Shown piece by piece: positions 1-62,498 of a DNA stretch of 64,000 nt. Each line of letters opens with the position of its first letter. Position 1 is the first letter of the stretch. The notes under the pieces are model-generated. The model was given only the letters and a program-made list of their open reading frames with translations. It made no database searches and was not told the origin of the DNA. Origin of the DNA: a virus. The DNA lies in the IMG/VR virus record IMGVR_UViG_3300045988_052780. The stretch is one strand, 5' to 3'. Both the position numbers and the translations under genes were made by a program.

Positions 1-289
1 ATGATAGTTCCATCAATACATCATAGGTTGGAATGCCCTTATCATAGTCAGGATTCATCATTGACTTCTCTATGTCACTTACAAAGACATTAGGAAGGCT
101 GTCGAATGCCATACAACACATAGCATACCTGTATGGGAATCTGGTACTACGCCCCTTCCATATATTCTGATATGCAGGAATTACTAATACTTTATCTACT
201 AGTTTAGAATTAACAACTCCCATTACTACATTGGCATGTCCAATGTGAGGAGGATCGAATGAGCCAAAGAATAAACCTACTCTATTCAT
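1..289 (-). CDS. nadD: nicotinate/nicotinamide mononucleotide adenylyltransferase (NadD/NMNAT-like), N-terminal part only; the gene continues past the window edge
   Basis: Minus-strand translation from ATG at 289..287 gives MNRVGLFFGSFDPPHIGH..., the HxGH nucleotidyltransferase motif of NadD/NMNAT. The ATG overlaps the nadE stop (TATGAATAG). Absent from the ORF track because the window truncates it. Confidence 0.6.
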   Translation of the reverse strand, partial: MNRVGLFFGSFDPPHIGHANVVMGVVNSKLVDKVLVIPAYQNIWKGRSTRFPYRYAMCCMAFDSLPNVFVSDIEKSMMNPDYDKGIPTYDVLMELS

Positions 290-1271
290 ATAACTTTCTA
301 GATATATAAATTGGTGCTTTCTTACGTTTAAATTCAGAAGCTAAATGACGGCCCCAAACCTTATTGACTACATCTTCTCCATGTCTAGCACATAACTGTG
401 ACCAGCAATCAGATTCTGCCATTTCATCATGTGGGTGCATGATTTGTCCAGCTGAATCATAGCTTTTTCTAAAGTCCTCGAATGGAATGAATCTACTAAG
501 TATATCATCCACAGTAGCGTAGTCCTTAGCACCTATCTGGTCTAAGTCACTATTACTAATACCAAGACCATCAGTGGGAACTAGCTTGCAAGAATTATAT
601 ATAGCACATGACATTGCTTTATAATTATCGCAAGTTTCTTTATAATCATTACGAAGAGCTTCTAGAGCTTTACTTTTATAATGGTCTTGCAAATAGTTTG
701 CCAGTCCGTAAACTTCAGTCTTCCACAGGTCTTGAATCGGGTCAAAGTCACCCACATCACCATGAATAGTCCAGAACCCAAGCTGATATTCAGTTTGATT
801 ATCTGTACTCATTACCAATCCTTTATGACGACTAGCTATATCATATAGATACATCATTCTGCACCTAGCTTGAAGATTACCATTAGCAATAGGAGTCCTA
901 CTGGGCATTTCTTCTAGCTCATCGAGATAGTAAGAATTAGCTATATTGACATCACCTGCATCAGCACATGCGTCAAAGAGAGCTGCACGATAGGAACGTT
1001 CGGGCCTATAAACTGAGAAGTCATCACAGAAAGCTTCTCCAACTAACTTAGACACATCAAACTCGTCACTCTTATTCTTAATAGGAAGACTTCTACCTAT
1101 AAGTGGAATGCCAGTTTGTTTACTTACTTCATGACAAATGGCAGCAACAACAGTGGAGTCAATTCCTCCACTGATGCCTAATACCATTGCCTTGAGATTA
1201 TTAACTTTCACATAGTTTGCAGTCTCCTTTACTAGGACTTCAAACACTTTACTATAATCCAAGTTATTCAT
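282..1271 (-). CDS. nadE: NH3-dependent NAD+ synthetase
   Basis: PP-loop ATP pyrophosphatase motif SGGIDSTVV near the N-terminus. Size and layout fit NadE. Confidence 0.8.
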   Translation of the reverse strand: MNNLDYSKVFEVLVKETANYVKVNNLKAMVLGISGGIDSTVVAAICHEVSKQTGIPLIGRSLPIKNKSDEFDVSKLVGEAFCDDFSVYRPERSYRAALFDACADAGDVNIANSYYLDELEEMPSRTPIANGNLQARCRMMYLYDIASRHKGLVMSTDNQTEYQLGFWTIHGDVGDFDPIQDLWKTEVYGLANYLQDHYKSKALEALRNDYKETCDNYKAMSCAIYNSCKLVPTDGLGISNSDLDQIGAKDYATVDDILSRFIPFEDFRKSYDSAGQIMHPHDEMAESDCWSQLCARHGEDVVNKVWGRHLASEFKRKKAPIYISRKLYE

Positions 1272-1453
1272 TTCAATTCACGTTTAAATGTGTATATAAG
1301 TCTTGAAATCTTAGTAGAAATAGAAATGTCTACACGTTTAGAATATTCATGAGATACCATTCCTACTAATTCCCAGCCTAAAGACCCTAGAGCGTCTAAT
1401 TCACTCTCTGATACTGGATAGACTCTTTCTAACATTTTATATTCAAACTTCAT
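1268..1453 (-). CDS. hypothetical small protein inside the NAD operon
   Basis: 61 aa ORF whose start/stop overlap its neighbours. No motif recognised. Confidence 0.4.
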   Translation of the reverse strand: MKFEYKMLERVYPVSESELDALGSLGWELVGMVSHEYSKRVDISISTKISRLIYTFKRELK

Positions 1454-1584
1454 ATTAACTGTGTTTATAAAACAGATAGTTATATTGAGCTTCGGTCATT
1501 TTAACAGCAGCACAGAGAATCCATCCCTGTGCTCCCAGCTCATTTAATTCTTCCACGCTCATTACTGAACCATATACAGTCTTT

Positions 1585-2763
1585 CTAAGGTACTCTATAT
1601 GCATATCCCAAATCAGTTAAACACCTTTGAACATCCTCAATCTTACCGGTGTGTTTACCGGCATCATCTGATAATTTAACACAACCAAATATTGGTTGGT
1701 TAGAATTCATTTGGCAGCTAGTAAGTTTCATTACAATGTTAGCTGGCTTAAAACCAGTATCGTTAGTAAGATTAGTACCAATACCAAATGAACATCTAAT
1801 CCTACCTCTACAGTATTCCATAATATCTTGACATTTGTCAAAATCTAGGGCATTACTAAAGACAATGGTCTTAGTCGTGGGATCAACACCAAGTTCTTTA
1901 TAACGACTAATCATATCGTTTATAAACTTGTATTCATCCCCAGAATCACATCGTACTCCGTCAAACAGTTTAGCTTGCTTACGAGACAGATTCTTCATAA
2001 ACGTATACGAGGTATATGTATCAGACAATGCTATACCTAGATCGCCATCATACACATTTACCCAGTTCTCAAGAGCCATATAGTTAGCCTGCCTATAACC
2101 ATACATAGCACCATGGAACATGAACCATTCATGTGGGTGAGTTCCCATCATAGGCATATCATACTTCATTGCTAAATGGCAATTAGAAGTACCAGTACAA
2201 TAAATAGATCCTTCCTTGATTGTAGATACTACTATGTCTTGCACATTATAACTAAATCGTCTTCTAGTACCAAATTCAGAGAATTTAATCCCGGCAACAT
2301 TAGAAAGCTTAATTTTAGGTGATAGCCTCTTAATAACGTCAGCCAAATCACAGTTGTTATCAAATATTCTGCTGCGCAATTCTGATACTATTGCAAGAAT
2401 AGGTACTTCATATAAAGTAACCTTATAAAGATAGTCAGTTACTTTAATGTGTAAGTGGCCGTTTTCATCTAAGGATGCTTGTATTTTGCCAGAATTGAAT
2501 TTAAATGAAGATAGCCATTCCCAATAGACTGGAGGAATGAATCTACAATTATTATTCATATATTCTTGTTCATCCTTAGCAAGATGTAACATTCCTAGGG
2601 AACCAAGCTCCAAGTATAGTCTCTCTATGAAGTCTTCTGGATACTCAGTATTATCACGATCAATAAATTCAAAAGTTCCTCTAGCTTGAGGAAATAATTT
2701 CATATAAGCATACGAAGTTGTAAACTTATATAAATCTGTATCTAATATAGATTTAATTATCAT
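1585..2763 (-). CDS. pncB: nicotinate phosphoribosyltransferase
   Basis: N-terminal LDTDLYKFT and VPILAIVSE closely match E. coli PncB (LLDTDAYKL..., VPLLAVISE). 392 aa. Confidence 0.85.
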   Translation of the reverse strand: MIIKSILDTDLYKFTTSYAYMKLFPQARGTFEFIDRDNTEYPEDFIERLYLELGSLGMLHLAKDEQEYMNNNCRFIPPVYWEWLSSFKFNSGKIQASLDENGHLHIKVTDYLYKVTLYEVPILAIVSELRSRIFDNNCDLADVIKRLSPKIKLSNVAGIKFSEFGTRRRFSYNVQDIVVSTIKEGSIYCTGTSNCHLAMKYDMPMMGTHPHEWFMFHGAMYGYRQANYMALENWVNVYDGDLGIALSDTYTSYTFMKNLSRKQAKLFDGVRCDSGDEYKFINDMISRYKELGVDPTTKTIVFSNALDFDKCQDIMEYCRGRIRCSFGIGTNLTNDTGFKPANIVMKLTSCQMNSNQPIFGCVKLSDDAGKHTGKIEDVQRCLTDLGYAYRVP

Positions 2764-3055
2764 CTCGTTTAAACATTTCTATAATTCTACACACTACTGA
2801 ATCGATAGTTTGTAATGATTCTATTATTCTACTATCTCTATATTCCTTAGACCAGGTACTATACTCTTTATGGTTAGTTATTCTCTGCACTATAGAGCCT
2901 ATTACTAGAATAGCATTGACATAAGGAATCAAGCCTACTATGCCCGTAAACACTACTACTTTAGTAGTAAGATAAGGCCTAGTAACTTCATTAGAATAAA
3001 CACTAGCAATTACACATACAAACACCAGTACTGAAATAGCATAAATTAATCCCAT
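2753..3055 (-). CDS. small membrane protein (predicted 3 TM)
   Basis: Hydrophobic segments. Located between pncB and pncA. Confidence 0.4.
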   Translation of the reverse strand: MGLIYAISVLVFVCVIASVYSNEVTRPYLTTKVVVFTGIVGLIPYVNAILVIGSIVQRITNHKEYSTWSKEYRDSRIIESLQTIDSVVCRIIEMFKRDDN

Positions 3056-3624
3056 TTTAAGTTATATTCTTTAATTAGTTCAACTAGTTTATCTCCTCCG
3101 TCTATAGAGGCTATATACTTAGTATCTACTATTATGTTGTCTGCATACCCCATAGCTATTAAACTACAAATGGTTTCATACACACAATAATCACCAGCTA
3201 TACCGACTACTCGAATTTCGTTATCTGGGTCAGATTCAAAATCAAGTAATATGTCTGATATAACAGAAAGACTTTCTAGATTATCAAAGATACTATATTC
3301 TTCTTTGTCAGTACTATCTCCTTTAATAAAGATGTCTGTATCCTTACGATAAGCATAGTTGTTTATTACACTCCACAGTGGAGCATACACACAACTACCA
3401 GCAGTACCTTTAACACAATGTGGAGGCCATTGACCTCCGTTCTCTTTAAAGGAGCAGTGATTAGATGGGTGAAAGTCCTTAGTAATCATTACATAGTCAC
3501 AGTCAATTTCACCGTTCTGTAATGCACTAGCAAGAGCATCCATCTTCTCTTTAGCTCCTTCTACAGCTAAGGACCCACTGATAAAATCTACCTGTGGGTC
3601 TACAATTAATAAGATCTTGTCCAT
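3046..3624 (-). CDS. pncA: nicotinamidase (isochorismatase family)
   Basis: LLIVDPQVDF...GSLAV, DFHPSNH and AGDYCV match the PncA catalytic D/K/C framework (E. coli LLLVDLQNDF, DWHPANH, ATDYCV). Confidence 0.85.
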   Translation of the reverse strand: MDKILLIVDPQVDFISGSLAVEGAKEKMDALASALQNGEIDCDYVMITKDFHPSNHCSFKENGGQWPPHCVKGTAGSCVYAPLWSVINNYAYRKDTDIFIKGDSTDKEEYSIFDNLESLSVISDILLDFESDPDNEIRVVGIAGDYCVYETICSLIAMGYADNIIVDTKYIASIDGGDKLVELIKEYNLKWD

Positions 3625-3625
3625 T

Positions 3626-3859
3626 CTACTTACTATATGCTGCTATAGCAGCCCCAATTACTATAATTATTAGAGCAATTATTAAAATTCCGAATACAAG
3701 GGCAACTGGTATCCATAATGGAGCCAGCACCCACCACCAAGACCAAGTAGCTACAGCAGAAACTCCTAATAGCTTAAGAGTTATAAATACAATTGCTAAA
3801 AGTGTACACAAACTGGGTCCTCTATATATTACTTCAGGAGTGTTAACTGTATACTTCAT
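3626..3859 (-). CDS. small hydrophobic membrane protein
   Basis: 77 aa with two long hydrophobic stretches and a WSWWW motif. Confidence 0.35.
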   Translation of the reverse strand: MKYTVNTPEVIYRGPSLCTLLAIVFITLKLLGVSAVATWSWWWVLAPLWIPVALVFGILIIALIIIVIGAAIAAYSK

Positions 3860-3860
3860 T

Positions 3861-4580
3861 TTAGATATTTAAGTATAAGGGTTCATAATGAATATTATAA
3901 TCTTCTCCCACTAAGCTTACATTGGCTAAATGAATACCTGTAATTTCCTGTAATTCATGATTACCACTGTGAATGTGTCCACAAAAGCAATAATCTGGTT
4001 GCTTACGCATTATTTCGTCTGCTAGCCAAGGATTGCCTGCATCTTTACCTGCCCATGCTCCAGTATGTATCTCTCCTAAACCTAACATCTTAGGGGCATC
4101 ATGAGAAAGTAGAATATTGCAATCTATAGGAATATCGGAATATCTATCCTGTAATGTCTCCGATTCTCGCATAAATGCCCAATTACCGAAGATCTTACAG
4201 TATGGAGTTCCAAAGATTCTAAGTTTAACAAAGACTCCAGGCTTTACTTCGTAATCATAATCCCACATTTTATGATGGAGATATACTAGCTTACCATCCG
4301 TAGGTTTATTAAATGTTTCATATATTTCAGGTTCCATACCTCCATTTCTTTCAAACCAGAAGTCATGATTACCTGCTATAAATATAACATGTTTACACGG
4401 AAGATTGTTAGCCCACGGAATAAACTCAGTCTTTAACCATTCTAGAGAAGCAGGCATATTTAACTGAACAGACAGTGGCATTATATCTCCACATATGAAG
4501 AATAACTCACAGGGTTCTATTTCTGGAAGTATTCCATGTAAATCAGATGTTGCTCCTATTCGCATTTCTCGGCTGTACAT
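3861..4580 (-). CDS. calcineurin-like metallophosphoesterase
   Basis: Motifs GATSDLHG, CGDIMP, AGNHDFW, GHIHSGNHE. Confidence 0.6.
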   Translation of the reverse strand: MYSREMRIGATSDLHGILPEIEPCELFFICGDIMPLSVQLNMPASLEWLKTEFIPWANNLPCKHVIFIAGNHDFWFERNGGMEPEIYETFNKPTDGKLVYLHHKMWDYDYEVKPGVFVKLRIFGTPYCKIFGNWAFMRESETLQDRYSDIPIDCNILLSHDAPKMLGLGEIHTGAWAGKDAGNPWLADEIMRKQPDYCFCGHIHSGNHELQEITGIHLANVSLVGEDYNIHYEPLYLNI

Positions 4581-4798
4581 TTAATCCGTATTTCAACCAT
4601 CTCTCCATCGTCAATGTTAGGAAGTGATTCCATAAAGTCTATACCGTAGACATCCTCAATCTCCGTTTCTGGTATCCACTCATAATCCTCTGGTTCCTCA
4701 TCAGAGTTATTCCATATATCTTCATACTTAACTGGAGCTACTGACCCTTTATAAAGCCATTTATCTCCGATGTCGTCTATACAATACCAAAACCTCAT
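4556..4798 (-). CDS. small acidic Trp-rich protein, paralog family A member 1
   Basis: MRFWYCIDDIGDKWLY... shares the R.WY..D..G..Y.Y N-terminus and W/E-rich body with 4801..5049 and 6407..6628. Confidence 0.45.
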   Translation of the reverse strand: MRFWYCIDDIGDKWLYKGSVAPVKYEDIWNNSDEEPEDYEWIPETEIEDVYGIDFMESLPNIDDGEMVEIRIKCTAEKCE

Positions 4799-4800
4799 AG

Positions 4801-5049
4801 TTACTTCATTTTAAGTTCACATACAAGTTCTATCTCCATACATTCCCCTTTATTCAGTTCAGGGAAAGCAACTGTTCCGAACAACTTATTAAGGCTGTCA
4901 TTAAAGTCTTCTTCCGACCAAAATATACCATCGTCGTCTGATTCCTCCCACTTTCCATCATTCATAGTTGGAGGATTGTATCCAACATATAAATATACAT
5001 AATCAGCAAGACTTCCTTTTAAGTCTCTACAATACCATGCTCGTTTCAT
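4801..5049 (-). CDS. small acidic Trp-rich protein, paralog family A member 2
   Basis: MKRAWYCRDLKGSLADYVYLY... same family. Confidence 0.45.
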   Translation of the reverse strand: MKRAWYCRDLKGSLADYVYLYVGYNPPTMNDGKWEESDDDGIFWSEEDFNDSLNKLFGTVAFPELNKGECMEIELVCELKMK

Positions 5050-5309
5050 TCTTTATACCAAGTCGTATTTAACTGTTCGTCAATCTCAAACTGTAATGGG
5101 CCCTTATCAGGCGTAGTGGTTGGAATAAAACAATCTCTAAACACATCGTCTGTAGCCGAGGTCCAAAGAAATTTGTTATCATTTCCACGCCAGCTGCCAC
5201 CCCTTGTTGCTGTAGGCGCATCGCCATCTGTAACATATAAGTCTCCTTCCTGTACAGCTACTACCCACCATTTACCTACTGGACTAGTTATGGGGATTCT
5301 CATGTCCAA
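5046..5309 (-). CDS. hypothetical protein
   Basis: 87 aa ORF tiled with neighbours. Confidence 0.35.
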   Translation of the reverse strand: MDMRIPITSPVGKWWVVAVQEGDLYVTDGDAPTATRGGSWRGNDNKFLWTSATDDVFRDCFIPTTTPDKGPLQFEIDEQLNTTWYKE

Positions 5310-5565
5310 ATTCAGATATATCTTTTAAGTAGTCAAACATTTCATCTTCATCTTTAGTAAGCTCTAAAAGTGGAATTATTGATATGGATATACCAGGTCT
5401 ATATACATAATACCACTTGTTATCAACACCAACCCAAGTAGCTAAGTCCGATGTACGCATATAAGGCTTACCTTGAGCTTCTAGTTCTCTTCTAATGCCT
5501 GGATTTGGACACGAAGGACCAAGTTCTATCTCTATACTGTGTCCATGAATTACTTTAACCGACAT
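5284..5565 (-). CDS. hypothetical protein
   Basis: 93 aa ORF. Confidence 0.35.
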   Translation of the reverse strand: MSVKVIHGHSIEIELGPSCPNPGIRRELEAQGKPYMRTSDLATWVGVDNKWYYVYRPGISISIIPLLELTKDEDEMFDYLKDISEFGHENPHN

Positions 5566-5570
5566 AGGTT

Positions 5571-5807
5571 TTAGTCATTACTAAGAGTTATTGATCCTTC
5601 GAAGCGAGACCATCTAGATAATTCCTTATAAGTCTTTAAAGTTCCAGGTGGCGTTGCATTATGTTGTAAGACAACTACCATATACCCATTATCATCAGAG
5701 CGGCCAACGTAAATACCTATAACAGTTAATCCGAAGTCTCCAAATCTGATTATGGTTCCCTTCTTAGGAGTAGGAACCATTTCGGCATTGTTCATAACTA
5801 CCTTCAT
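5571..5807 (-). CDS. hypothetical protein
   Basis: 78 aa ORF. Confidence 0.35.
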   Translation of the reverse strand: MKVVMNNAEMVPTPKKGTIIRFGDFGLTVIGIYVGRSDDNGYMVVVLQHNATPPGTLKTYKELSRWSRFEGSITLSND

Positions 5808-6211
5808 TCCTTCAAGTCTCCCATTACATTACGGCTAAGCCTGTCATCAATTCTCTCCTTACAAGCATCAAGATAAGCTTCAAGTGCAGCTACCTGTTTG
5901 GCATTCTGTTCACAAGGGAACTTCTCATTGAGCTTCTTTACTCTATCGAGTAAGATAAGTACCAGTTGTTCTGATTGCCAGCCTGGAGTTATTGTGCCAT
6001 CTTCATGTTTATGGACAAACTGAATAGTATCAGTAGCATCCACATACTTAGTTTTACCATTAACAAAGCCAGCACACATTTGGGCACGGTAACGATGAGC
6101 TCCATTGAATCCATCATCGGGAATTACTTCAATAGTTTCCTTATTACTAGGATACACCTTTAAGTCCTTAACTGGAACATACTTCTTTCTACTACTAATA
6201 ATTCTTGCCAT
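5804..6211 (-). CDS. hypothetical protein
   Basis: 135 aa ORF. Confidence 0.4.
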   Translation of the reverse strand: MARIISSRKKYVPVKDLKVYPSNKETIEVIPDDGFNGAHRYRAQMCAGFVNGKTKYVDATDTIQFVHKHEDGTITPGWQSEQLVLILLDRVKKLNEKFPCEQNAKQVAALEAYLDACKERIDDRLSRNVMGDLKE

Positions 6212-6216
6212 AATAC

Positions 6217-6429
6217 TTATTCTTTATAAATGTTAAATGTTTCACCTATTTCATTAAGAGTATCGCATAGATGTTCTACACATCTTATAAGTGCCTCTTT
6301 CTCCAATCCTTCTAGCCATTTAAGTCTAGTCTCTGGAGTACAATCTTCAATACAAGTAGGAATGGGTTTCTCCTCTCCTTCTAGTTTATCGAAGATAAAT
6401 ATACCACTAAGATTTCTCCGCAATTTCAT
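6217..6429 (-). CDS. hypothetical small Cys-containing protein
   Basis: 70 aa ORF. Confidence 0.3.
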   Translation of the reverse strand: MKLRRNLSGIFIFDKLEGEEKPIPTCIEDCTPETRLKWLEGLEKEALIRCVEHLCDTLNEIGETFNIYKE

Positions 6430-6628
6430 ACTTCATTTCAAACTCTATCGGTGTATCATACCAAGTAATGTTTGGAGTTTCTACACCATTAAACAATTCA
6501 CTTGTAGCGGAATATGCTTCTCCATCGCAGTTCCACATTTCACTGTCAACATCTCTGTAAGGTGCTTCTGTATAGAAGTATCCTTCTCCATCTCTGTCAA
6601 CAGCATACCAGACTCTAATTGCTTTCAT
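6407..6628 (-). CDS. small acidic Trp-rich protein, paralog family A member 3
   Basis: [19 protein letters not shown]... same family as 4556..4798 and 4801..5049. Confidence 0.45.
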   Translation of the reverse strand: MKAIRVWYAVDRDGEGYFYTEAPYRDVDSEMWNCDGEAYSATSELFNGVETPNITWYDTPIEFEMKYEIAEKS

Positions 6629-7205
6629 TTACTTGTTTCTCAATTATATGTTTTACTTGTATATATGACACAGGAATATAATTGTTATTATCAACTCCTA
6701 CATCGTATTGAGTCGGGAATAAATATTTTAATCTATCAATATCAATTCCCGTACCATTTGGACCTGAATGCACATGCCCAAATAATTGCCATACAGTAGC
6801 CTCTGGTTTGCGGTATGTTCCGCCATAACACAAGAAAGGATAGTGATTCAAGTAAATACTACGATTCTCTATCCTTATTTGCATTTGTGGAACTACTGCC
6901 TCAAACTTATCCATGTAACCTTGACGTATGTTCTTGTGGTCGTGATTCCCGAGTATTAGGTATATTTTACCATTAAGTCGGGATAAAACCTTATTCCATA
7001 CATCACTGCCACCCAAAGCAAAATCTCCCAAATGGAAGACTGTATCATCGTCTGTGACCACATTATTCCAGTTCTCTACCAACATATCGTTCATATGATT
7101 AACATCTCTGAATGGACGCCTACACAGATTAATAATGTTAGCATGGTTCCAGTGGGTATCTGACGTAAAGAAAGTATGCTCCGGGTCAAATTCAAACTGC
7201 TTCAT
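6615..7205 (-). CDS. calcineurin-like metallophosphoesterase (second copy)
   Basis: Motifs [28 protein letters not shown]. Confidence 0.6.
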
Positions 7206-7534
7206 TTACCACAACAATATTTATACTTCTTACCACTGCCACATGGACACGTTTCATTCCTTCCAATCTTAGGAGCTTCACGTACATATGGAGTTCTACT
7301 TAGATATTTACTAATCATGTTTCTTAATTTAACCTCTTCCTCTGGAGATAGTTCCTTATCAAGGTCTAAGGCTGCTTTAGCTTCTTGCATTCTAAATGTG
7401 AATAAATATTTAACAAATAATATTAATCTACATATCCTATTAATCTGCATATCGAAGATTCTTTGATCAGCTCTGTGCTGTTCACGTTTAGTTCTTCTGA
7501 TATCAGTTCTAAACTTGTATACTCCCTGGATCAT
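7202..7534 (-). CDS. small SEC-C metal-binding motif protein (true start probably an internal Met)
   Basis: C-terminus [17 protein letters not shown] is the SecA-type SEC-C Zn-binding motif. The N-terminal third overlaps ThyX and is doubtful. Confidence 0.4.
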
Positions 7535-8432
7535 AAGTATTAATATAACCTGCTAATATCATCCTATCCCTCAGCTCAATTGCTAACTCCCTAGCTTGAG
7601 GATGAGCATCACGTGCACATCTTAAATTGAAGAATCCTGCCCACTGTTCATCAGTACCAGTCATTATTAATTCTGTCTTTAATGCTAAAGGTAATACATT
7701 TCTAGCTTGTTGAGCAGGCTCACCCTCTGTCAACAATCCGAAATATGTACTTTCTGCCTCACACATAGCTTGTATCCATGCGGCTTCAGTTCGAGACAAT
7801 CCTTCAGATATAGTTAAATCATAAGTATGACATAATTCTATATTATATGAATTACCCTCGAACATATTCTTATACCAGCACGGTATTATACAATTTAATT
7901 CCTTACCAAACTTAGCCTTAGAGTAATTACAATACCTAGTACTCTCTTGAGCAAAACTAAATACTCTATGTCTACAGAACTCTCTGGCAACTCCCATATC
8001 ACATATAAACCTTACAGTTATTCGTCTAACATGATACTCTGTAGGTTCACATAAATATTGCAAATCATCAAGCCAGCCATTCTGAAGTAGTACTCTATAG
8101 TTACTAGTCACACACCAATAATCATAAATTTGACTGTTTTGCACTATAGAATATGGATTATCAATATATTTAGTAGCTATAGCTTCATTAGAGAAATACC
8201 CTGTATCATACATAATTCCATAAGGAATCTTAAGATATACAGTGCCATGCTCTAACATAGCAGTATGACCTCTAGCTACAATAACATTATCAATAAACTT
8301 TCTGGCACTATCTTCAGTAATCTTATCTTCAGACTTGTAACAAGTCCTTGCACACAGTTCCATGTGTTTGAAGAGACCTTCAACACCTGGTTTCTGGTTA
8401 ATAATTTCTACTTTCGGTTTGATTAAACGCAC
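7509..8432 (-). CDS. thyX: flavin-dependent thymidylate synthase
   Basis: ThyX signature RHRxxSxxxxSxRY is present as [16 protein letters not shown]. Confidence 0.85.
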
Positions 8433-8851
8433 TAATAAAATGTTACTTCTTTAGAACCAAATTCATCTAATTCTTTAATTGTTTCATCTTGTACTATATC
8501 ATCTATAGGTTCTGGAGCATTTCTAGACCATATAGACTGTAGGTATTTGGGGTCTTTAAGATACCAAAGTCCACAAGGAGCAGTGTGGGGAAATTCCTTC
8601 CTCTTCTCCTCAACATCAGTATAAACCCTTTTATATACTTCCATTATGTCCCATTCTGAGTTGGTACTACCTTTCACAGTCATATCTGGAGCATAACTAG
8701 AAATATCCATATAACCATTATCAGCTGCAAATATGGTGGTAACTTTATCAACAATCTTATCACAAAAGATCCTAACGTCAGTAAGTACTACATACAGTCC
8801 ACCATTCCTTAGCTTAACAACCATTGTATTCTCTAGATCATTCAGAGTCAT
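8432..8851 (-). CDS. hypothetical protein
   Basis: 139 aa ORF. Confidence 0.4.
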   Translation of the reverse strand: MTLNDLENTMVVKLRNGGLYVVLTDVRIFCDKIVDKVTTIFAADNGYMDISSYAPDMTVKGSTNSEWDIMEVYKRVYTDVEEKRKEFPHTAPCGLWYLKDPKYLQSIWSRNAPEPIDDIVQDETIKELDEFGSKEVTFY

Positions 8852-9323
8852 CGTCCCAATTCAAATAAGGATTAGATGCAAGGTTATAGTTATAATACCT
8901 TGTATCTTCTGTGACTTCGTCTCCAACAAAATCAGGCAATTCTGGATTCAAAGTTGCCTGAGTTAATTCACACTCAGCAATTGTCAATCCTTCATTGTCT
9001 CCCAAGAACTCATCAATTTCCCATTTGTTACCTTTATGGTAAACTATATAACGTACTTTACGTATAACGTTCGGGCAAAGTTTTAACAATTCTAATGCCT
9101 CATACTTTGGAATTTCCTGCCGCCATTCAAACCTACTAAGAGTTCCCTTAGCTTTTATAAATAGCCAGCCTTTATTCTCCCTAATAGCTATTCTAGTCTC
9201 AGATAGAGGATTATCTCCAAGATATCCTTGAATTATTAATCCTGCTTTCTGAGCCTGTACTTTATAGCTATTATTCTTTACTAAATACTTTCTTTCAATT
9301 TCTGTCATAATTAATGTACCCAA
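8838..9323 (-). CDS. CYTH-domain triphosphate tunnel metalloenzyme (CyaB/ThTPase-like)
   Basis: N-terminal EIERKYLV (the defining ExExK motif), followed by the RIAIR, KGTLSRFEWRQEI and ECELTQ strands typical of CYTH. Confidence 0.7.
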   Translation of the reverse strand: MGTLIMTEIERKYLVKNNSYKVQAQKAGLIIQGYLGDNPLSETRIAIRENKGWLFIKAKGTLSRFEWRQEIPKYEALELLKLCPNVIRKVRYIVYHKGNKWEIDEFLGDNEGLTIAECELTQATLNPELPDFVGDEVTEDTRYYNYNLASNPYLNWDDDSE

Positions 9324-11452
9324 TAGTCTTCAATAGATATATCTGCACCCAAATGTGCTCTAGTACAGAATGGCTCACCTCCACTTTCCATACACTTCAC
9401 AAGTATCTTGCCTACCTCTTCAGCAATATTTTCAGGTGCTTCGACATTGTGCTCGTCATGAACAGGTACACAGTATCTAACTGTGAATAACAAATTGTTC
9501 TTCCTTAGCCAATTAAAGAATTTAATGGCAGATAATTTGAAACACATAGAACCAGCATGTTGAATAGGATAATTTATTGACTGTTTCATTGAATCAGATA
9601 ACCTTCTCCTCAAATGCTGAGAGCTTGTTTTGTAATAATTATCACCGTTAGATCCTAACATATATTTAGCTTCTGGAGAACCCAATTCGCTGTCTATCTT
9701 ACAAAGATTATCCCAATCATATATGAATGCTTTATGTTTAGTAATAGGATTAAGAAGGATATATCCCTTATCTAGAACGTCTTCCCTCCTAAATTCCTGA
9801 TATTTCTTTAATCCAGAGAAACCAGACATATAATTATCATATACTTCTTGAGCCCTTCTCTTAGTAAGACCATAGTTCTTCATTAAAGTGTTCCAATCTC
9901 CTCCATAGTTGAAACAGAACTCATACCCTTTAGCAGCATCTCTAAGAGGTTTATATTTAGCCTTAACTTCAGATAATGGAGTATCATCAGGAATATCAGT
10001 GAATACTATTCTAGCAGTTAGACTATGTAAATCTCCACTTCCATTTACTAATTCGTCCAACATGGCCACATCATTAGCAATAGACGCCATTAAGAAGGAT
10101 TCCTGTCCTTTATAATCACAACTGATCCATTTATATCCAGAATCTGCTATAAAACAACTTCTAGTAAATGGATCATGTGGAAGATTCATTAGGGACGGGT
10201 TGGTTGCAGACAATCGACCAGTATCGGCTCCTAATTGGAAATAATCTGGATGAATACGTCCACTAACTGGATTAATCTTATCTATAAACTTCTGCCCAAA
10301 AGTATCAACAAGTATTTTAGCCTTCTTATACTCTACATATAATGGAACTATAGTACACTTATTGGCTTGTGGCTTAATAAGCTTTATATCAACAGATTTC
10401 TTCTTAACTTTAGTCTTTGGGTCTATAGTAGTACAGTTAAGACCTAGATGTTCAAATAAAGGCACTACTTGTTGGCTACTAGACCAGTTTACATTACATT
10501 TAGCACAAGTATCAAATCCAGAGAACAAATCTCCCTGTAGATTACGTGTTACATATGGAAATGCTTTATCATACTCATAATGAATAAGTCCAGTTTGAGG
10601 ATTCTGAACTCTCTTTACATTACTCATATTATTGTTTAGGGAATCAAATAGTTTAAACTCTTCCATAATGGGAACTTCTTCGGTAGATACTCTAATATAT
10701 CCCTCAGTAGAAGATTTATGTTCTTCATAATAATCCTCTACCCACTTATTAAGAGCAGCTTCTGCTTTATTAACTTCTTCTTTATCCCTCGACATCTTTT
10801 GCTTCCATTTGATTGGATCAAGTTTAGCTCCACAATATTCCATATAAGCAATTACTGGAGTAAACTTCATTTCAAATTCAGCAGCCTTAGTTAATTCTTT
10901 CTTCTCTAGCTCTGCATCTTGCTTCTCTTTAATCTTAGTAAGATACATAACATCACCAGCAGCATATTGTACTACTGGTATTGTTAAACCTTGTGTGATA
11001 ATTTGTCCTCGAACTGTTTTATCAATATCTATACCAAGATAGAAGTCAGCGGCAGCTTTTAAAGCAAGACTATGAAACTGAGGAGGATACCCTAGATAGA
11101 GTATCTTCTCAGCAATCATTCCATCCCATACATTATAAGGAACTATTCTATGATGATATAGAAACCTTAAATCAAACGCAATATTCCAACCTAGAAATGT
11201 TTTAGTAGGATCTTCAAGCACACATCTAAGCTTTTCAATTGGAATGGTTACATTATCAATAACTATCTGATCCTCTCCTAAACCATATTGAGTACATAAT
11301 AGAGGTTTTGTATATGGATCAAGACCAGCAGTTTCACTATCATATTCTATCCAACTATGAGGCATTATCATGTCTATAGCGTCAGACAGAGACAGTTCTT
11401 TATAAGCATCAGTTTCAAATAGTGATTTCTGATTACTTACTAGATATATCAT
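9311..11452 (-). CDS. family-A DNA polymerase with N-terminal 3'-5' exonuclease
   Basis: Exo I motif DSETAGLDP. Polymerase motif B RDAAKGYEFCFNYGG. Motif C VHDEHNVEAP. 713 aa. Confidence 0.9.
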   Translation of the reverse strand: MIYLVSNQKSLFETDAYKELSLSDAIDMIMPHSWIEYDSETAGLDPYTKPLLCTQYGLGEDQIVIDNVTIPIEKLRCVLEDPTKTFLGWNIAFDLRFLYHHRIVPYNVWDGMIAEKILYLGYPPQFHSLALKAAADFYLGIDIDKTVRGQIITQGLTIPVVQYAAGDVMYLTKIKEKQDAELEKKELTKAAEFEMKFTPVIAYMEYCGAKLDPIKWKQKMSRDKEEVNKAEAALNKWVEDYYEEHKSSTEGYIRVSTEEVPIMEEFKLFDSLNNNMSNVKRVQNPQTGLIHYEYDKAFPYVTRNLQGDLFSGFDTCAKCNVNWSSSQQVVPLFEHLGLNCTTIDPKTKVKKKSVDIKLIKPQANKCTIVPLYVEYKKAKILVDTFGQKFIDKINPVSGRIHPDYFQLGADTGRLSATNPSLMNLPHDPFTRSCFIADSGYKWISCDYKGQESFLMASIANDVAMLDELVNGSGDLHSLTARIVFTDIPDDTPLSEVKAKYKPLRDAAKGYEFCFNYGGDWNTLMKNYGLTKRRAQEVYDNYMSGFSGLKKYQEFRREDVLDKGYILLNPITKHKAFIYDWDNLCKIDSELGSPEAKYMLGSNGDNYYKTSSQHLRRRLSDSMKQSINYPIQHAGSMCFKLSAIKFFNWLRKNNLLFTVRYCVPVHDEHNVEAPENIAEEVGKILVKCMESGGEPFCTRAHLGADISIEDYWVH

Positions 11453-13050: not shown

Positions 13051-13425
13051 CTAGTAATGCCATTTGTCATAATATAAAGAGAACCTGTATAATCTGTTTG
13101 CAGCCTCAACTGGAGTATGACCATCCCATTCATCAGCTTTCCATCTTTCAGGAACATTGAACAGGTTCCATTCTTCCGCCCTATAATGATTGCTCACTTG
13201 ACCCGTAGGAAGGTTAGCCATAACAATAAACCATCCTCCTCCAAAGCATAGTTCTCCATCTGCATGTCTGTAGGATTTATGGACTTCATATTTACCTTCC
13301 AAGCTGTTAAAGAATGCTGCATTGTACAGCATTCTGTAGTGATATAACTCATCAAAGGTATGAAATCCGTCTGAAACCTCACCTTCAGGTAGGAACAAGT
13401 TCTTTAGTCTTTGTAATAGTCTCAT
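13051..13425 (-). CDS. hypothetical aromatic-rich protein
   Basis: 124 aa ORF. Confidence 0.4.
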   Translation of the reverse strand: MRLLQRLKNLFLPEGEVSDGFHTFDELYHYRMLYNAAFFNSLEGKYEVHKSYRHADGELCFGGGWFIVMANLPTGQVSNHYRAEEWNLFNVPERWKADEWDGHTPVEAANRLYRFSLYYDKWHY

Positions 13426-14351
13426 TAGAATTTACCCTCATTAGGTTGTAAACAAATCAGACCTTCATTACGCCACATTTCCACACATTTGCAATTGTCT
13501 TCAAGTACGAATGGAATATAGTACTTACCTTTGATATTGTCTTCATAGAACTTCTTCTTACATATAGGACCAGCTACGAAGCTATTAGCGGGACGCATAA
13601 GAATCATATCTGGATGTAGGAAGTTATTCTCCAACCACTGTTCTGTAGCTTTACGAACTTCTGGGGTATCTTCCCTACCAGTTAGTATTATTAACTTGGC
13701 AGGATAATTATCACAGAAGTTTCTAATAAGTTCAAGAATAGGAGTAATAGGCTCATCAGTAAGCATACCTTCAGCTGCACCTTCTCCATAGAACGGACGA
13801 CCACTAGTATTCAGACACACAGTTGCATCCATATCTACTATAATTGCTGCTGGTAGGTTAGTGTCTTGAACTAATGCTTTAGCCTTAGCAGCCATAATTT
13901 CCTCATGAATTATGAAGTCTCTATAGCGTCTCCAAGTCTGTCTAATAACTTTCTCACCTATAGGATGTTCTCTTTTAGCATCACGACGAACACACTCATC
14001 TACGGGAGTCCAGAAATCTTTGTATTCAATCTCATACTTCCAATCGTAGGTATAATTCTCGTTAAAGTCCTTAACCATCTTCTCTAACTCTGCACAAGTC
14101 TTAGGATTAAGGTTCATATTATCAACTATGATGTTATAACCTTTCTCCATACTATAAGCTAGTACAGTGTTATAAGTTGCAGTGACAACATCCTCTCTAC
14201 TAGGAACCCAATAGTCTCCCAGCATGTTACGAATATCGTCATTGTTAAATCTTACTCTGTGCTCCGGGTCTTCATGACACCACTGCTTAGCAAAACTAGT
14301 TTTGCCACTTCCCTGAATTCCTCTACAGATTACTAATACTCTAGTTTCCAT
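13425..14351 (-). CDS. pnk: polynucleotide 5'-kinase/3'-phosphatase (T4 Pnk-like)
   Basis: P-loop CRGIQGSGKTS, HAD phosphatase motif IIVDMDATVC, LIILTGRED, and CVEMWRNEGLICLQ (T4 Pnk VVEMWRRIGVECWQV). Confidence 0.9.
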   Translation of the reverse strand: METRVLVICRGIQGSGKTSFAKQWCHEDPEHRVRFNNDDIRNMLGDYWVPSREDVVTATYNTVLAYSMEKGYNIIVDNMNLNPKTCAELEKMVKDFNENYTYDWKYEIEYKDFWTPVDECVRRDAKREHPIGEKVIRQTWRRYRDFIIHEEIMAAKAKALVQDTNLPAAIIVDMDATVCLNTSGRPFYGEGAAEGMLTDEPITPILELIRNFCDNYPAKLIILTGREDTPEVRKATEQWLENNFLHPDMILMRPANSFVAGPICKKKFYEDNIKGKYYIPFVLEDNCKCVEMWRNEGLICLQPNEGKF

Positions 14352-14749
14352 TAATCAATATTACATAAAACATCACTAAATCCGCTATAATCTAAGTCAG
14401 CTAAAATGTCTCGTATAAACGATATGTAATCTCTAGTACTTTGTAAATCCCGTATATATTCCTTAGTGGATATCATCTCCTCTATAAGTTCCGAATTGCC
14501 ATGACAGAATTTCTCGTACTCTACTCGCCTCGCTTCTGCTTTAGCAATGTCATCATCAAGGTCTCGAATTACTGATTCAACATCACTAACAGTGAGTTTA
14601 GTATACTTCTCTTCATTACCAGCATATGCTATACTAAGATTATCAAAGAATCTTTGATACACCTCATTAGACCTACTGAATGATTGAAGTAGTAGCCTCT
14701 CCTCTGGATGTGCTTTAGGCACTAAATAAAATGATAAATAACTACTCAT
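14351..14749 (-). CDS. hypothetical protein
   Basis: 132 aa ORF between pnk and the nucleotidyltransferase. Confidence 0.4.
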   Translation of the reverse strand: MSSYLSFYLVPKAHPEERLLLQSFSRSNEVYQRFFDNLSIAYAGNEEKYTKLTVSDVESVIRDLDDDIAKAEARRVEYEKFCHGNSELIEEMISTKEYIRDLQSTRDYISFIRDILADLDYSGFSDVLCNID

Positions 14750-15540
14750 TTCTCGTTAGTTGGCTTAAGCCACAAGCTAGTTTTAGTAAAGATATAATCT
14801 CTCAGTTCAGTAAGTTCAGATAACCATCCCAATGCTAAAGATGAGTTACATTTAAAGCATTTTGTTAGTTCTTCCCTTATCCTCTCCTCTGATACTACTG
14901 GCATTTTATTGAAATAATCATAAGACTTCATAACTTGCCACATATCTTGAGATACTAGCAACCTTTTAGTAATAGAGAATCTTATACCTCTAAGTATTCT
15001 TAGTGGGTCATCATCGAATGTTGTTATTGGGTCTAATGGGGTTACCAGCAGCCTCCTTGCTAAATGAGTCTTGCCATTAAAGTAGTCTATAATCTCTCCA
15101 GTATCAGGGTCTTTAGCCATAGCGTTGACAGTAAAATCTCTACGAGATAAATCATCATATAGATTACCTGGTTCTACAATGGGAATCCTAGTGCCTGGGA
15201 CATATCCTACTTCCTTCCTTGCCATCACAAAGTCTGCTACACCTTGATACTTATATCCTTCTGGGAATTTAGCACGTATAGTGTAACATTCTGGAGTTAC
15301 TAAGAAGATTTCGAACTTCTGTTCTTCCAAGTAGCTTTTTAATGCTTTAAACATTAGTTGAGCTGGACTAAGCTGAGCTTCACATGGGTGAATTTTACTA
15401 TAGACTGCCTTTGTAGGCACAGCTACATAATCAACATCCTTATTAGTAAGACCTAATAGCTCATCGCGTATCTTACCACCAACTTCGTAGAATTTAAAAT
15501 CTTCCATTTTAATAAAAATATTATTCTTCCATTTTATCAA
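14746..15540 (-). CDS. Pol-beta superfamily nucleotidyltransferase, tRNA CCA/A-adding enzyme head-domain type
   Basis: YEVGGKIRDELLGLTNKDVDYVAV matches the GGxVRDxLLG...DxD signature of CCA-adding/poly(A) polymerase heads. At 264 aa it is shorter than canonical Cca. Confidence 0.6.
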   Translation of the reverse strand: MIKWKNNIFIKMEDFKFYEVGGKIRDELLGLTNKDVDYVAVPTKAVYSKIHPCEAQLSPAQLMFKALKSYLEEQKFEIFLVTPECYTIRAKFPEGYKYQGVADFVMARKEVGYVPGTRIPIVEPGNLYDDLSRRDFTVNAMAKDPDTGEIIDYFNGKTHLARRLLVTPLDPITTFDDDPLRILRGIRFSITKRLLVSQDMWQVMKSYDYFNKMPVVSEERIREELTKCFKCNSSLALGWLSELTELRDYIFTKTSLWLKPTNEK

Positions 15541-18618: not shown

Positions 18619-18923
18619 TCTCGTGTAAGTTCAAATTCACGCATAAAGTTAGCAAATACTTGTGCCAACGATTCATCTTGTTTGTTGTTATAGTAATAGT
18701 TGAATGCATGAAACACTTCATGCCAGAAAGAATTCTTAATCTGTTCTTCAGTCAGATTAATTACCTTTCCATCATCAGTCTTCATGCATTCTGCTACCTT
18801 TATTTCTAATGTTAGATTACAATGAGAACCAAAGGTATCACCATCATCTATAAAATCGCACAAAGTGACTTTATACCAATGATTGGCTATTCTAACCTTA
18901 CTAGGGATGTCATATTTATTCAT
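18615..18923 (-). CDS. hypothetical protein
   Basis: 102 aa ORF. Confidence 0.35.
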   Translation of the reverse strand: MNKYDIPSKVRIANHWYKVTLCDFIDDGDTFGSHCNLTLEIKVAECMKTDDGKVINLTEEQIKNSFWHEVFHAFNYYYNNKQDESLAQVFANFMREFELTRE

Positions 18924-20118
18924 AATCCCTAATACATTTTAGAACTGGCTGTAGAGGACAACCTTCATCGCTAAGATAGAAGTACTTCACAGTAGCCATC
19001 TTACCAATAATTTCATCCATTCTGTCAAGATATTCCCATTTTAACTCACGAGGACCCATAGGTTTGGCTTCAAACTCTTTACCCTCTTTAGTTTTACATA
19101 CAAATACCATGTCTTCGGGACGTAATCCTTCACTATAACCAACAATTTCAAATTCTGCGTCCTTATACATTTTGACTTTAATCATAGCATTAGTTCTTCC
19201 TCCAAAGTTATATACCTTAGAAGGATCACGAATAACTATTCCCTCAAAGCCTTCACCTACATACTTGTCATGTAGTTTCTGTATATTAGCCCAACCAACA
19301 ACTGTTTCTTGAGGAACTATTTGGAACTTCAATTCTCCATCATCCCATTCTCTTTCTGGATTGAAACCTAAATTCAATTCATCAGTAATGTCATGAAGAA
19401 TATCTAGTCGTTCCTCAAATGTTTTGGTACTATCCATTACATCATAAATATAATATTCAAGCCAATCCATTCCAGCTGTATCTTTCTCCAATCTTGCCGC
19501 ACCACTGATCTGCTGTAGAGATTTACCATGTTTATATAGTTCACCATCTAATACAATATCAGGATGCTCTTCAAAGAATTGAATAAGTTTTGGATTATGA
19601 CGCATGAAGGAAGTTGAAGCATCGTAATCACCACCTCCTCTAGAGGCAGTTCTTACTTCCCCATCCTTCCAATAGAAGGAGCATCTAACTCCATCTATCT
19701 TTCTGCTACCGTACCAATATTTGATTTTATCAAATACACTAGTAGCAACTTTGTCAGCTTGTTTAGCTAACATATGCTTCTTAAATCCATTTGAATCAGT
19801 AACACCATTACCTAAGTGTTCCTCAACAAATGCCTCAACTGCTACAGCATTATCAATTTTAATTGAAGATGGTAGCAGTTTATACCCTTTATCTGTGTAT
19901 TTCTTTAAATGAGAGTTATACTCTAATCGAGCCTGTTCAGATACGGTTCTTTTAACCTTACCTTTATAAATCCATATCTCTGGCTGTACAGTTACTTTAC
20001 CACCATATTGATATGTCTTTCTTCTAATAACAAACCCATGTTGAGCATCATCCCATTCGTAACTAATCTCAACTACTCTAGTTTTACCCTTGTTGTCTTT
20101 AGTTACTAATATGTCCAT
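18916..20118 (-). CDS. ATP-dependent polynucleotide ligase (DNA-ligase-type KxDG nucleotidyltransferase)
   Basis: Motif I SRKIDGVRC, motif III VLDGELY, motif IV EGFEGIVIR, motif V AMIKVKMYK. Confidence 0.6.
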   Translation of the reverse strand: MDILVTKDNKGKTRVVEISYEWDDAQHGFVIRRKTYQYGGKVTVQPEIWIYKGKVKRTVSEQARLEYNSHLKKYTDKGYKLLPSSIKIDNAVAVEAFVEEHLGNGVTDSNGFKKHMLAKQADKVATSVFDKIKYWYGSRKIDGVRCSFYWKDGEVRTASRGGGDYDASTSFMRHNPKLIQFFEEHPDIVLDGELYKHGKSLQQISGAARLEKDTAGMDWLEYYIYDVMDSTKTFEERLDILHDITDELNLGFNPEREWDDGELKFQIVPQETVVGWANIQKLHDKYVGEGFEGIVIRDPSKVYNFGGRTNAMIKVKMYKDAEFEIVGYSEGLRPEDMVFVCKTKEGKEFEAKPMGPRELKWEYLDRMDEIIGKMATVKYFYLSDEGCPLQPVLKCIRDYE

Positions 20119-23810: not shown

Positions 23811-24443
23811 CTATTTATCCCAAAATTTATAAGTTATGTTTGTTAACTTGTACTCTCCATCCTCAACTATAACCTTATAAAGCCTTTGGTTGGTGTTTGG
23901 ATTATTAAGTGGTCCACATTCTTCAATGTAAGGGCCGAGCTTAACGTAATTAAAGTTCTTCAGATCAATTTCCTCTGCTAATGTAGCTCTACCACTATAC
24001 CACCCAATCTTTATGTTAAGTGGTACTGTCTCCTGCCATTGCATCTCAGTTTCAGCCGGAATTGTTACCTTAGGAAACTTTACCTCTTTATGAATAGTAA
24101 AGGAATCTACTATCTTAGTAGTAGTTAATGCCCTTACTAAACCAGCATAGTGATTAATGAGTTTAGGGTCATTATCGCCACCCATAAAACAGATAGCAGT
24201 AATACCTTTATTCTCATTAATGAGTTTCTCTATTCTAGTAATTGTTAGAGGTTCTCCAATATCCTCTGCCAAGTAAGAGCTATGACAGCCTGGACAATGG
24301 CAGGGACAATTGGATATATTAATGGCAAGAGTGGTTTCATCAGGAATTTCCCTAAATACTATGTCATATCCTACATATTTAAGCATGTGCGTAGAATCTT
24401 CTGCTAGCTTCTTCTTGTCTTGCTTGACTGAAGTTACTAACAC
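23811..24443 (-). CDS. nrdG: anaerobic ribonucleotide reductase activating protein (radical SAM)
   Basis: NISNCPCHCPGCHSSY gives a CxxxCxxC cluster in the same position as T4 NrdG GCPHRCKGCHN. Sits immediately downstream of the nrdD exons. Confidence 0.7.
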   Translation of the reverse strand: MLVTSVKQDKKKLAEDSTHMLKYVGYDIVFREIPDETTLAINISNCPCHCPGCHSSYLAEDIGEPLTITRIEKLINENKGITAICFMGGDNDPKLINHYAGLVRALTTTKIVDSFTIHKEVKFPKVTIPAETEMQWQETVPLNIKIGWYSGRATLAEEIDLKNFNYVKLGPYIEECGPLNNPNTNQRLYKVIVEDGEYKLTNITYKFWDK

Positions 24444-24651
24444 GTTTTAAATAACCGATAACTCTAGTAGCATAATCAATGTTCTTACTACCACACTTAG
24501 GACATTCTTTGAGATATCTTTTATCAATATGTCCACAATCATTACAAATAGTATTTGGAATATTAAATGTGAAATAGTTAGTACCATTGACAGCTGCAAC
24601 CTTTAATAGGTTACGATACTGTTCTTTGCTAAGATGTTCATCTAGATTCAT
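24379..24651 (-). CDS. nrdD: anaerobic (class III) ribonucleotide reductase NrdD, C-terminal exon (Zn ribbon and glycyl-radical motif)
   Basis: CNDCGH...CPKCGS Zn ribbon followed by the glycyl-radical motif RVIGYL and QEEASRR. The ORF is C-terminus only. Confidence 0.7.
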   Translation of the reverse strand: MNLDEHLSKEQYRNLLKVAAVNGTNYFTFNIPNTICNDCGHIDKRYLKECPKCGSKNIDYATRVIGYLKRVSNFSQARQEEASRRFYAHA

Positions 24652-27224: not shown

Positions 27225-27368
27225 TAGAAACTAACTTTAATGGACATACTTAATAAACGGGAGAATACTTCAATTCTCCTCTATATGTTACCATATAGTT
27301 CCGACTATCGCATACCTTAATACATTATATTCACACATAACGTATTAAAGTCCTCTATATTTAGTCTG
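26489..27368 (-). mobile_element. group-I-like intervening sequence in nrdD carrying an HNH homing endonuclease ORF
   Basis: HNH ORF plus a 144 nt structured non-coding stretch (27225..27368) between NrdD N-terminal and central coding pieces. Junctions approximate. Confidence 0.5.
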
Positions 27369-62494: not shown

Positions 62495-62498
62495 GATT

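Follow-up and report, generated by a model that had tools for sequence, protein, structure and literature searches.

Background

NAD+ depletion is a major theme of bacterial immunity, and experiments have so far established three phage routes that rebuild NAD+, in every case with phages that infect model Proteobacteria or Firmicutes. In the description of NARP3 (PMC13464706), NARP2 is named as a known means by which phages counter immunity directed at NAD+, and NARP3 itself is reported to restore NAD+ after depletion by Sir2-HerA. Genes for NAD+ synthesis are also known from gut phages: Li et al. (2024, Microbiome, PMC11662467) described 174 gut 'NAD-jumbo phages', many of them with Bacteroidota hosts and including clustered pncB-nadD-nadE. 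In that purely computational study, both a supply of NAD+ and a counter to NAD+-depletion defence were proposed (PMC11662467). Human gut viral contigs carrying nadE, nadD, pncA and pncB have been reported as well (Theranostics 2025, PMC11780533). Here we analyse a stretch of 64,000 nucleotides from the IMG/VR virus record IMGVR_UViG_3300045988_052780, referred to below as the 64-kb window, at one end of which the genes pncA, pncB, nadE and nadD encode a candidate route from nicotinamide to NAD+.

Few large phages of the human gut are assembled as often as this carrier, and TIR NADases are known from its probable hosts, the Bacteroidales. In Bacteroides, strains have been described whose TIR proteins act as NADases (PMC9092222).

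A predicted route from nicotinamide to NAD+

Based on family profiles and active-site residues, the four enzymes very probably make up a functional route from nicotinamide to NAD+. In the proposed pathway, PncA would deamidate nicotinamide to nicotinate, and PncB would convert nicotinate and phosphoribosyl pyrophosphate (PRPP) to nicotinate mononucleotide (NaMN). NadD would then adenylate NaMN to nicotinate adenine dinucleotide (NaAD), which the single-domain NadE would amidate to NAD+ with free ammonia and ATP. The original prediction had proposed this complete series of intermediates, and all four steps are indeed encoded with their motifs intact. It had called for profile-HMM searches with catalytic-residue checks and had named the loss of catalytic residues as grounds for rejection; the four assignments hold, and the active-site motifs are intact across 27 to 31 distinct copies. 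Profile and motif evidence likewise bears out the coordinates and strand that had been given for PncA, PncB, NadE and NadD. A predicted full path from nicotinamide, which NADases release, to NAD+ is thus encoded in a phage context, as defined by the IMG/VR contigs and their replication genes. Unless another contig or locus is named, coordinates refer to the window, and all cluster genes described here lie on the minus strand.

PncA (192 residues; 3046..3624, minus strand) scored 33.2 bits against PF00857 (cut-off 27) and 66.8 bits against the NCBIfam equivalog PRK11609, for which the cut-off is 174. Its best solved-structure matches are nicotinamidases, with yeast Pnc1 at the top (1e-21) followed by 3r2j and 3pl1. 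Residues D9, K101 and C147 align with the Pnc1 catalytic triad D8/K122/C167, and the metal site D50/H52/H69 aligns with D51/H53/H94 of Pnc1, a site that separates nicotinamidases from other isochorismatase-like enzymes. The triad and metal-site residues were invariant in 31 distinct copies, with identity down to 31%.

PncB (392 residues; 1585..2763) is unambiguously predicted to be a nicotinate phosphoribosyltransferase (NAPRTase). It scored 444 bits against NF003704 (cut-off 379) and 413 bits against TIGR01514 (cut-off 270), holds both Pfam domains, PF04095 and PF17767, and matches the solved NAPRTase 2im5 with E=2e-118. The motifs GTHPHEW, FGTRRR and FGIGTNLT were invariant in 30 distinct copies, among which a single change, M206I, was seen beside GTHPHEW; the histidine-containing GTHPHEW segment is identical in 2im5. 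A partial match of 46 bits to the phage NAMPT family phrog_448 was also obtained. Identification of the protein as a Namat or a Nampt was considered and ruled out by the NCBIfam equivalog scores for NAPRTase.

NadE (329 residues; 282..1271) is predicted to be a single-domain NH3-dependent NAD synthetase with a C-terminal extension, and it matched PF02540 (1.4e-33) and TIGR00552 (120.7 bits, cut-off 63.65). The SGGIDS PP-loop, T156-D-N, E161, H170-G-D and K184-T-E were all invariant in 27 distinct clade copies. The closest solved relatives, 3p52 and 1xng, are annotated as NH3-dependent NAD+ synthetases. A nitrilase-like glutaminase domain is absent from the protein, in whose 329 residues Pfam finds PF02540 alone, and the enzyme is therefore predicted to use free ammonia.

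The window holds the first 96 codons of nadD (1..289), which stops at the window edge. This fragment gave partial matches to PF01467, TIGR00482 and NF000840 and carries the HxGH motif (PHIGH within FDPPHIGH). Recovery of the full gene, for which the original prediction had also called, was achieved using near-identical public contigs. The complete protein has 192 residues (contig L007, 10983-11561) and is identical to the window fragment at 96 of 96 positions; the DNA of a second contig, L006, is 98.96% identical to the window across 1..11273. Full-length NadD aligns end to end with solved NadD structures. Residues H15, G17 and H18 were invariant in 31 copies, and the C-terminal S-T-x-x-R motif, which lies outside the window and was read from L006 and L007 as C-S-T-C-I-R (residues 159-164), keeps its S, T, I and R in 30 of the 31. 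The full-length protein scored 93.9 bits against NF000840 (cut-off 150) and 85.8 bits against TIGR00482 (cut-off 112). Its top models are nicotinate-nucleotide adenylyltransferases, and models of nicotinamide mononucleotide adenylyltransferase (NMNAT) were touched too.

Two NadD alleles were found to circulate. The N-terminal identity to the window is 55/96 at three related loci (L003, L004 and L012) and 90-96/96 at four others (L002 and L005-L007). The divergent NadD occurs in genomes that are otherwise about 98% identical, which suggests allele replacement by recombination.

Conserved partners of the four enzymes

Beyond the window edge, in contigs of the same phage, the genes after nadD encode, in order, p152 (152 residues), a Nudix hydrolase (184 residues), SLOG173 (173 residues), a HAD_SAK_2+YqeY protein and a dNMP kinase. 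The cluster is thus larger than in the original prediction. The Nudix hydrolase has an intact Nudix box, and its top family matches, which score weakly (about 32 bits), come from NrtR, which senses ADP-ribose (ADPR), and from bifunctional NMNAT/ADPR pyrophosphatases, of which the Nudix half is matched. Judged by these relatives, which also suggest its substrate, the protein is probably an ADPR pyrophosphatase, and it would turn ADPR, the other NADase product, into AMP and ribose-5-phosphate. SLOG173 is a YpsA-like SLOG protein that is predicted to bind nucleotides.

Conservation was assessed at 70 fully flanked IMG/VR loci encoding a relative of PncB; having been chosen by their PncB, these loci over-represent this phage group. 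All four enzymes were present in 64 of the 70 loci, the Nudix hydrolase in addition in 63, and the SLOG protein as well in 54. Together, PncA, PncB, NadE, NadD and the Nudix hydrolase take up 3.9-7.6 kb. Three gene orders were seen, one of them a compact Nudix-PncA-PncB-NadE-NadD arrangement, and the linkage of the five genes therefore survives rearrangement. The cluster is kept even in lineages with a DNA polymerase that shares only 34-60% identity with that of the window. Between the window species and a sister species, dN/dS was 0.05-0.15 for PncA, PncB, NadE, NadD and the Nudix hydrolase, values that show strong purifying selection on the enzyme genes.

Among 50,697 GenBank phage records, PncB relatives were found in only 13 and PncA relatives in 8. 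Unrelated giant phages repeat parts of the NAD-gene association. In Agrobacterium phage Atu_ph07, a PncA-like 'hypothetical protein', an annotated ADPR pyrophosphatase and PncB lie within 6 kb (185173..191071), and the 735-kb phage LR756501 has PncA, NadE and PncB within 8 kb (at about 423-431 kb). The latter phage was credited with nadD alone by Li et al. (PMC11662467).

Origin and loss of the cluster

Phage PncB shares 64-69% identity with chromosomally encoded PncB from Bacteroides, Phocaeicola, Parabacteroides and Paraprevotella, and the best 80 bacterial matches, obtained with an alignment-based scan, are all from Bacteroidales. These similarities place the origin of pncB in a Bacteroidales source. 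In the 80 Bacteroidales loci, no pncA, nadE, nadD or Nudix gene was found within 6 kb of pncB. The host pncB stands alone, and the cluster was therefore built in phage rather than captured as a host operon. Host contamination and capture of a host operon were examined as explanations and ruled out, since the contigs are viral genomes of 140-190 kb and the Bacteroidales pncB loci lack the partner genes.

With p152 and SLOG173 as queries, searches of public assemblies yielded 34 distinct chimeric open reading frames (ORFs), which represent in-frame deletion junctions within the cluster. They join the PncB N-terminus to p152/SLOG, NadE to p152/SLOG, NadD to SLOG, or p152/SLOG to YqeY (examples are P0121, P0137, P0161, P0200, P0204 and P0141). 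The intact forms have 325-427 member sequences and each chimera only 1-18, and three IMG/VR loci (L011, L045 and L004) show cluster deletions directly. The rarity and recurrence of these in-frame deletions indicate that the cluster is dispensable and is repeatedly lost at low frequency. Such a pattern fits conditionally useful accessory cargo, and the naturally occurring deletions supply phages that lack the pathway for comparison with those that have it.

Possible roles of the module

The module likely keeps up the NAD+ pool of the infected cell independently of host regulation, and in our judgement the benefit would be greatest while host TIR/SIR2-type NADases destroy NAD+. From the genes and from comparison with known systems, we infer that the enzymes are active, in what order the last two steps run, what the Nudix hydrolase acts on and that the phage gains in counter-defence. 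On this basis, we consider the case evenly balanced for a deamidating salvage module whose function includes a counter-defence benefit, and which would be a candidate fourth route of NAD+ reconstitution. In favour of this function, the route starts at nicotinamide, an NADase product; the conserved partners appear to come from ADPR-related families; and the module is at least partially redundant with host salvage. The TIR NADases of Bacteroides strains (PMC9092222) point the same way, as do NARP2 and NARP3, which consist of ordinary salvage enzymes and yet are described as countering NAD+-directed immunity (PMC13464706). If the counter-defence function is real, the module would represent a fourth biochemically distinct solution and would explain the recurrence of NAD-synthesis genes in gut viromes.

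Several points weigh against it. PncA and NadD score below their NCBIfam equivalog cut-offs, and the Nudix assignment is weak. The similarity of pncB is the sole and indirect evidence for the host, with which the G+C content of about 35% and the gut source are consistent. The route is long and costly, consuming PRPP and at least two ATP, or a third if PncB hydrolyses ATP, and a fast NADase might outpace it. Removal of nicotinamide could relieve the product inhibition of sirtuin-type NADases, as with yeast Pnc1 and Sir2. The cluster also sits amid nucleotide-metabolism and replication genes, a setting typical of general auxiliary metabolic genes. Finally, the literature that we searched contained neither experimental evidence for a deamidating route in phage counter-defence nor any 'NARP4'. 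A broader proposal is that the whole block, including the Nudix hydrolase, the SLOG protein and possibly the metallophosphoesterase and p152, forms a dedicated anti-NADase island (a 'NARP4'). Such an island would rebuild NAD+ and recycle ADPR for PRPP, and its SLOG protein would bind or destroy Thoeris signals of the cyclic ADPR type. We regard this proposal as unlikely; if true, it would mean that abundant Bacteroidales phages carry one system for both the rebuilding of NAD+ and the quenching of signals.

The cluster might instead be a general auxiliary metabolic module that gives the infected cell more NAD+, for instance after host shut-off or when niacin or nicotinamide is limiting in the gut, with no specific relation to NADase immunity. 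We consider this tenable, though short of probable. The nucleotide-metabolism and replication genes around the cluster agree with it, as does the dispensability seen in the deletion variants; PMC11780533 counts gut-viral NAD-synthesis genes among the auxiliary metabolic genes, and Li et al. (PMC11662467) emphasise complementarity with host pathways. However, the probable hosts already encode PncB, so that a plain supply would be at least partly redundant, and it would not require the conserved Nudix and SLOG proteins. Nor does an NAD+-consuming phage enzyme appear in the approximately 75 kb surveyed. The original prediction had offered as its metabolic alternative a supply of NAD+ to the ribonucleotide reductase, ligase and thymidylate synthase, which proves weak. 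The ligase depends on ATP, with 71 bits for PF01068 and 20.7 bits, below the cut-off, for the NAD-ligase domain; the reductase is the class III enzyme NrdD, and of the three only the thymidylate synthase ThyX uses a pyridine nucleotide. A purely metabolic role would make this an ordinary, well-conserved auxiliary metabolic module. Counter-defence and general NAD+ supply are not mutually exclusive.

Two further explanations concern the chemistry and the consumer of the product. The last two steps could be swapped, with NadE acting as a Francisella-like synthetase of nicotinamide mononucleotide (NMN) that converts NaMN to NMN, and the NadD-like enzyme then adenylating NMN to NAD+. Phage NadE does belong to the short single-domain class, and its third-best solved relative (60 bits) is 3fiu, which we take to be the Francisella NadE of the NMN-synthetase type; NadD, moreover, falls below the NaMN-specific equivalog cut-offs and touches NMNAT models. 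Against this order, the best solved relatives of NadE are the annotated NAD+ synthetases 3p52 and 1xng and the best models of NadD are nicotinate-nucleotide adenylyltransferases, and we hold the swap to be quite improbable. Less credible still is that the module replaces NAD+ spent by a consumer of the phage's own elsewhere in the genome, through ADP-ribosylation of host proteins or NAD+-dependent RNA repair. An RNA-repair-like set lies nearby (ligase, PNKP, CCA-adding/PolyA_pol and HAD_SAK_2+YqeY), and about 110 kb of the genome lies outside the surveyed part. However, the Pfam calls for the surveyed 75 kb contain no ADP-ribosyltransferase, sirtuin, Tpt1/KptA or NAD-dependent ligase domain, and we would give this explanation very little weight.

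Layout of the locus and its smaller genes

Minus-strand ORFs run unbroken across 1..4580, with neighbours overlapping or lying 1 base apart. The genes nadE and nadD, which had been predicted to be coupled, share an 8-nt overlap (ATGAATAG). Three small ORFs, and not two as in the original prediction, are interleaved with the enzyme genes: TM100, s49 and s61. TM100 (2753..3055, minus strand; 100 residues) is a lineage-specific two-helix membrane ORF without a family match, confined to close relatives and to one other locus (L001, 43% identity). The paralogues s49 (1455..1604, minus strand) and s61 (1268..1453, minus strand) are DUF4177-like, with weak matches to NF053529 for both and also to PF13783 for s61. 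Related loci with s61 number 14 and those with s49 number 16; the sister species lacks both. There, nadE and nadD are separated by two inserted ORFs, a 367-aa AAA ATPase and one of 85 aa (L001, 6903-8006; L051, 3983-5086).

The cluster had been called an operon. In a scan for promoters and terminators, which covered 1..7000, no excess of sites stood above shuffled controls, the sigma-70 model used being inappropriate for Bacteroidota. Since the entire 64-kb window runs in one direction and the scan was uninformative, the label is only a guess, albeit a reasonable one.

Upstream of pncA lie a Trp-rich small membrane ORF of 77 residues (3626..3859, minus strand; TIGR04438 26.7 bits, below the cut-off; phrog_1374 5e-20) and, first in transcription order, a metallophosphoesterase of 239 residues (3861..4580, minus strand; PF00149 41.7 bits). 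The best solved relative of the latter is MPPED2, which is nucleotide phosphodiesterase-like, and its dN/dS was 0.095. It heads the cluster at every close-clade locus and in some distant lineages and is absent from 18 of 48 additional loci. Its identification as an aRES-type phage phosphatase was ruled out, as aRES is a Macro-domain protein. A second metallophosphoesterase gene is present in the window at 6615..7205.

The p152 gene (contig L006, 11554-12012) lies between nadD and the Nudix gene and is missing from the sister species. Residues Y5, S7, D48, G69, E73, P83, A87 and Y88 of its product are invariant. No Pfam, NCBIfam or PHROG match, no solved relative and no profile relation to the SLOG family were found for p152, and its AF2 model, built on a shallow alignment, had a pLDDT of 56. 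A motif pattern had raised the suspicion of a TIR-like or nucleoside-deoxyribosyltransferase-like fold, which family, profile, AF2 and solved-structure searches did not support.

The carrier phage and its genome

Many contigs of the clade are present in IMG/VR. The exact NadE protein was indexed in 426 public-collection blocks and the DnaB protein in 2,655, and the readable sample and contig names are those of human-gut metagenomes. The longest clade contigs gather at 177-191 kb, for a genome of approximately 185 kb; one contig of 381,860 bp is about twice the usual length, which suggests a dimer. Near relatives among GenBank phage records are unannotated faecal virome scaffolds alone, at 78% identity. 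The host is probably a member of the Bacteroidales, of the Bacteroides type, as the similarity of pncB suggests.

The window is a replication and nucleotide-metabolism block that encodes PolA, DnaB, primase, a Pif1-like helicase, ThyX, dUTPase, adenylosuccinate synthetase and NrdD. Further genes encode an ATP-dependent ligase, PNKP, a CCA-adding/PolyA_pol enzyme, ferritin and seven tRNAs. The adenylosuccinate synthetase-like gene (61448..62602) and the ferritin-like gene (44754..45395) are unusual phage auxiliaries. An RNA-repair-like set is made up of a ligase-family gene (18916..20118), a PolyA_pol/CCA-adding gene (14746..15540) and PNKP (13425..14351), with the HAD_SAK_2+YqeY gene just beyond the window (L006, 13128-14060), and the seven tRNA genes lie at 48.6-64 kb. 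The RNA-repair-like set and the tRNA genes hint at a defence against tRNA-targeting nucleases.

The nrdD gene (24440..28496, minus strand) is split into pieces by two endonuclease ORFs. An ATP-cone and NRDD profile positions 6-165 are encoded at 27369..28496 and NRDD profile positions 223-462 at 25679..26488; an HNH_3 ORF (26478..27224) and a GIY-YIG ORF (24758..25540) lie within the split gene, all of these on the minus strand. One relative (L008) has a further NRDD piece of about 90 residues, and another (L009) has an uninterrupted NrdD of 688 residues. The split looks like the work of homing-endonuclease introns or inteins.

Comparison with known systems

The original prediction had set this route apart from the described phage NAD+ pathways, and the distinction holds for NARP1 and NARP2 and also for NARP3. 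NARP2, represented by NadV-NatV of Vibrio phage KVP40 (Nampt and Nmnat-Nudix), likewise begins with nicotinamide, draws on PRPP and ATP, and places standard salvage enzymes on a phage. In both systems a Nudix domain of the ADPR type, predicted in our case, is associated with an adenylyltransferase. However, NARP2 is a two-step amidated route through NMN, whereas four steps would be taken here, through nicotinate, NaMN and NaAD, with an additional amidation that requires ammonia. NARP2 is defined by a Nampt together with an Nmnat, and PncB of this phage passes the NAPRTase equivalog threshold instead. NARP2 has also been established by experiment, whereas the present module is known from its genes alone.

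Like NARP1 (Adps and Namat), the module would rebuild NAD+ from NADase products, and Namat belongs to the broad phosphoribosyltransferase fold family of PncB. NARP1, however, uses ADPR-pyrophosphate and nicotinamide directly, whereas this phage has a PncB that passes the nicotinate phosphoribosyltransferase threshold, and Pfam calls for the surveyed 75 kb include no PRPS-like gene of the Adps type. NARP3 (PnuC transporter and NadR; Sci Adv 2026, PMC13464706) resembles the module as proposed in that ordinary salvage enzymes restore NAD+. It differs in importing nicotinamide riboside, and the 75 kb surveyed here contain no PnuC or NadR domain.

The chemistry is that of chromosomal Preiss-Handler salvage in Bacteroidales. 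In the host, pncB stands by itself, whereas the phage gathers the steps in one block. NadE of Bacteroides is usually glutamine-dependent, and the phage enzyme is of the short ammonia-dependent type.

The novelty claimed in the original prediction was overstated, as phage Preiss-Handler clusters and the idea of counter-defence had already been published (Li et al. 2024, PMC11662467). The NAD-jumbo phages of that study, such as Kuafu_71 with pncB-nadD-nadE, share with this phage a clustering of pncB, nadD and nadE, a gut habitat and Bacteroidota hosts. They differ in size, the present genome of approximately 183-190 kb being below their 200-kb cut-off, and in gene content, since this cluster begins at pncA and has a Nudix and a SLOG protein as close associates. 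The contigs of PMC11780533 carry the same four KEGG functions, which were reported without enzyme-level checks, gene-neighbourhood analysis or a defence hypothesis. New here are the residue-level validation of the enzymes, the full NadD and the tight association with Nudix and SLOG proteins across lineages. To these are added the assembly of the cluster in phage with a Bacteroidales-derived pncB, its deletion polymorphism, and a carrier of approximately 185 kb that falls below the jumbo cut-off.

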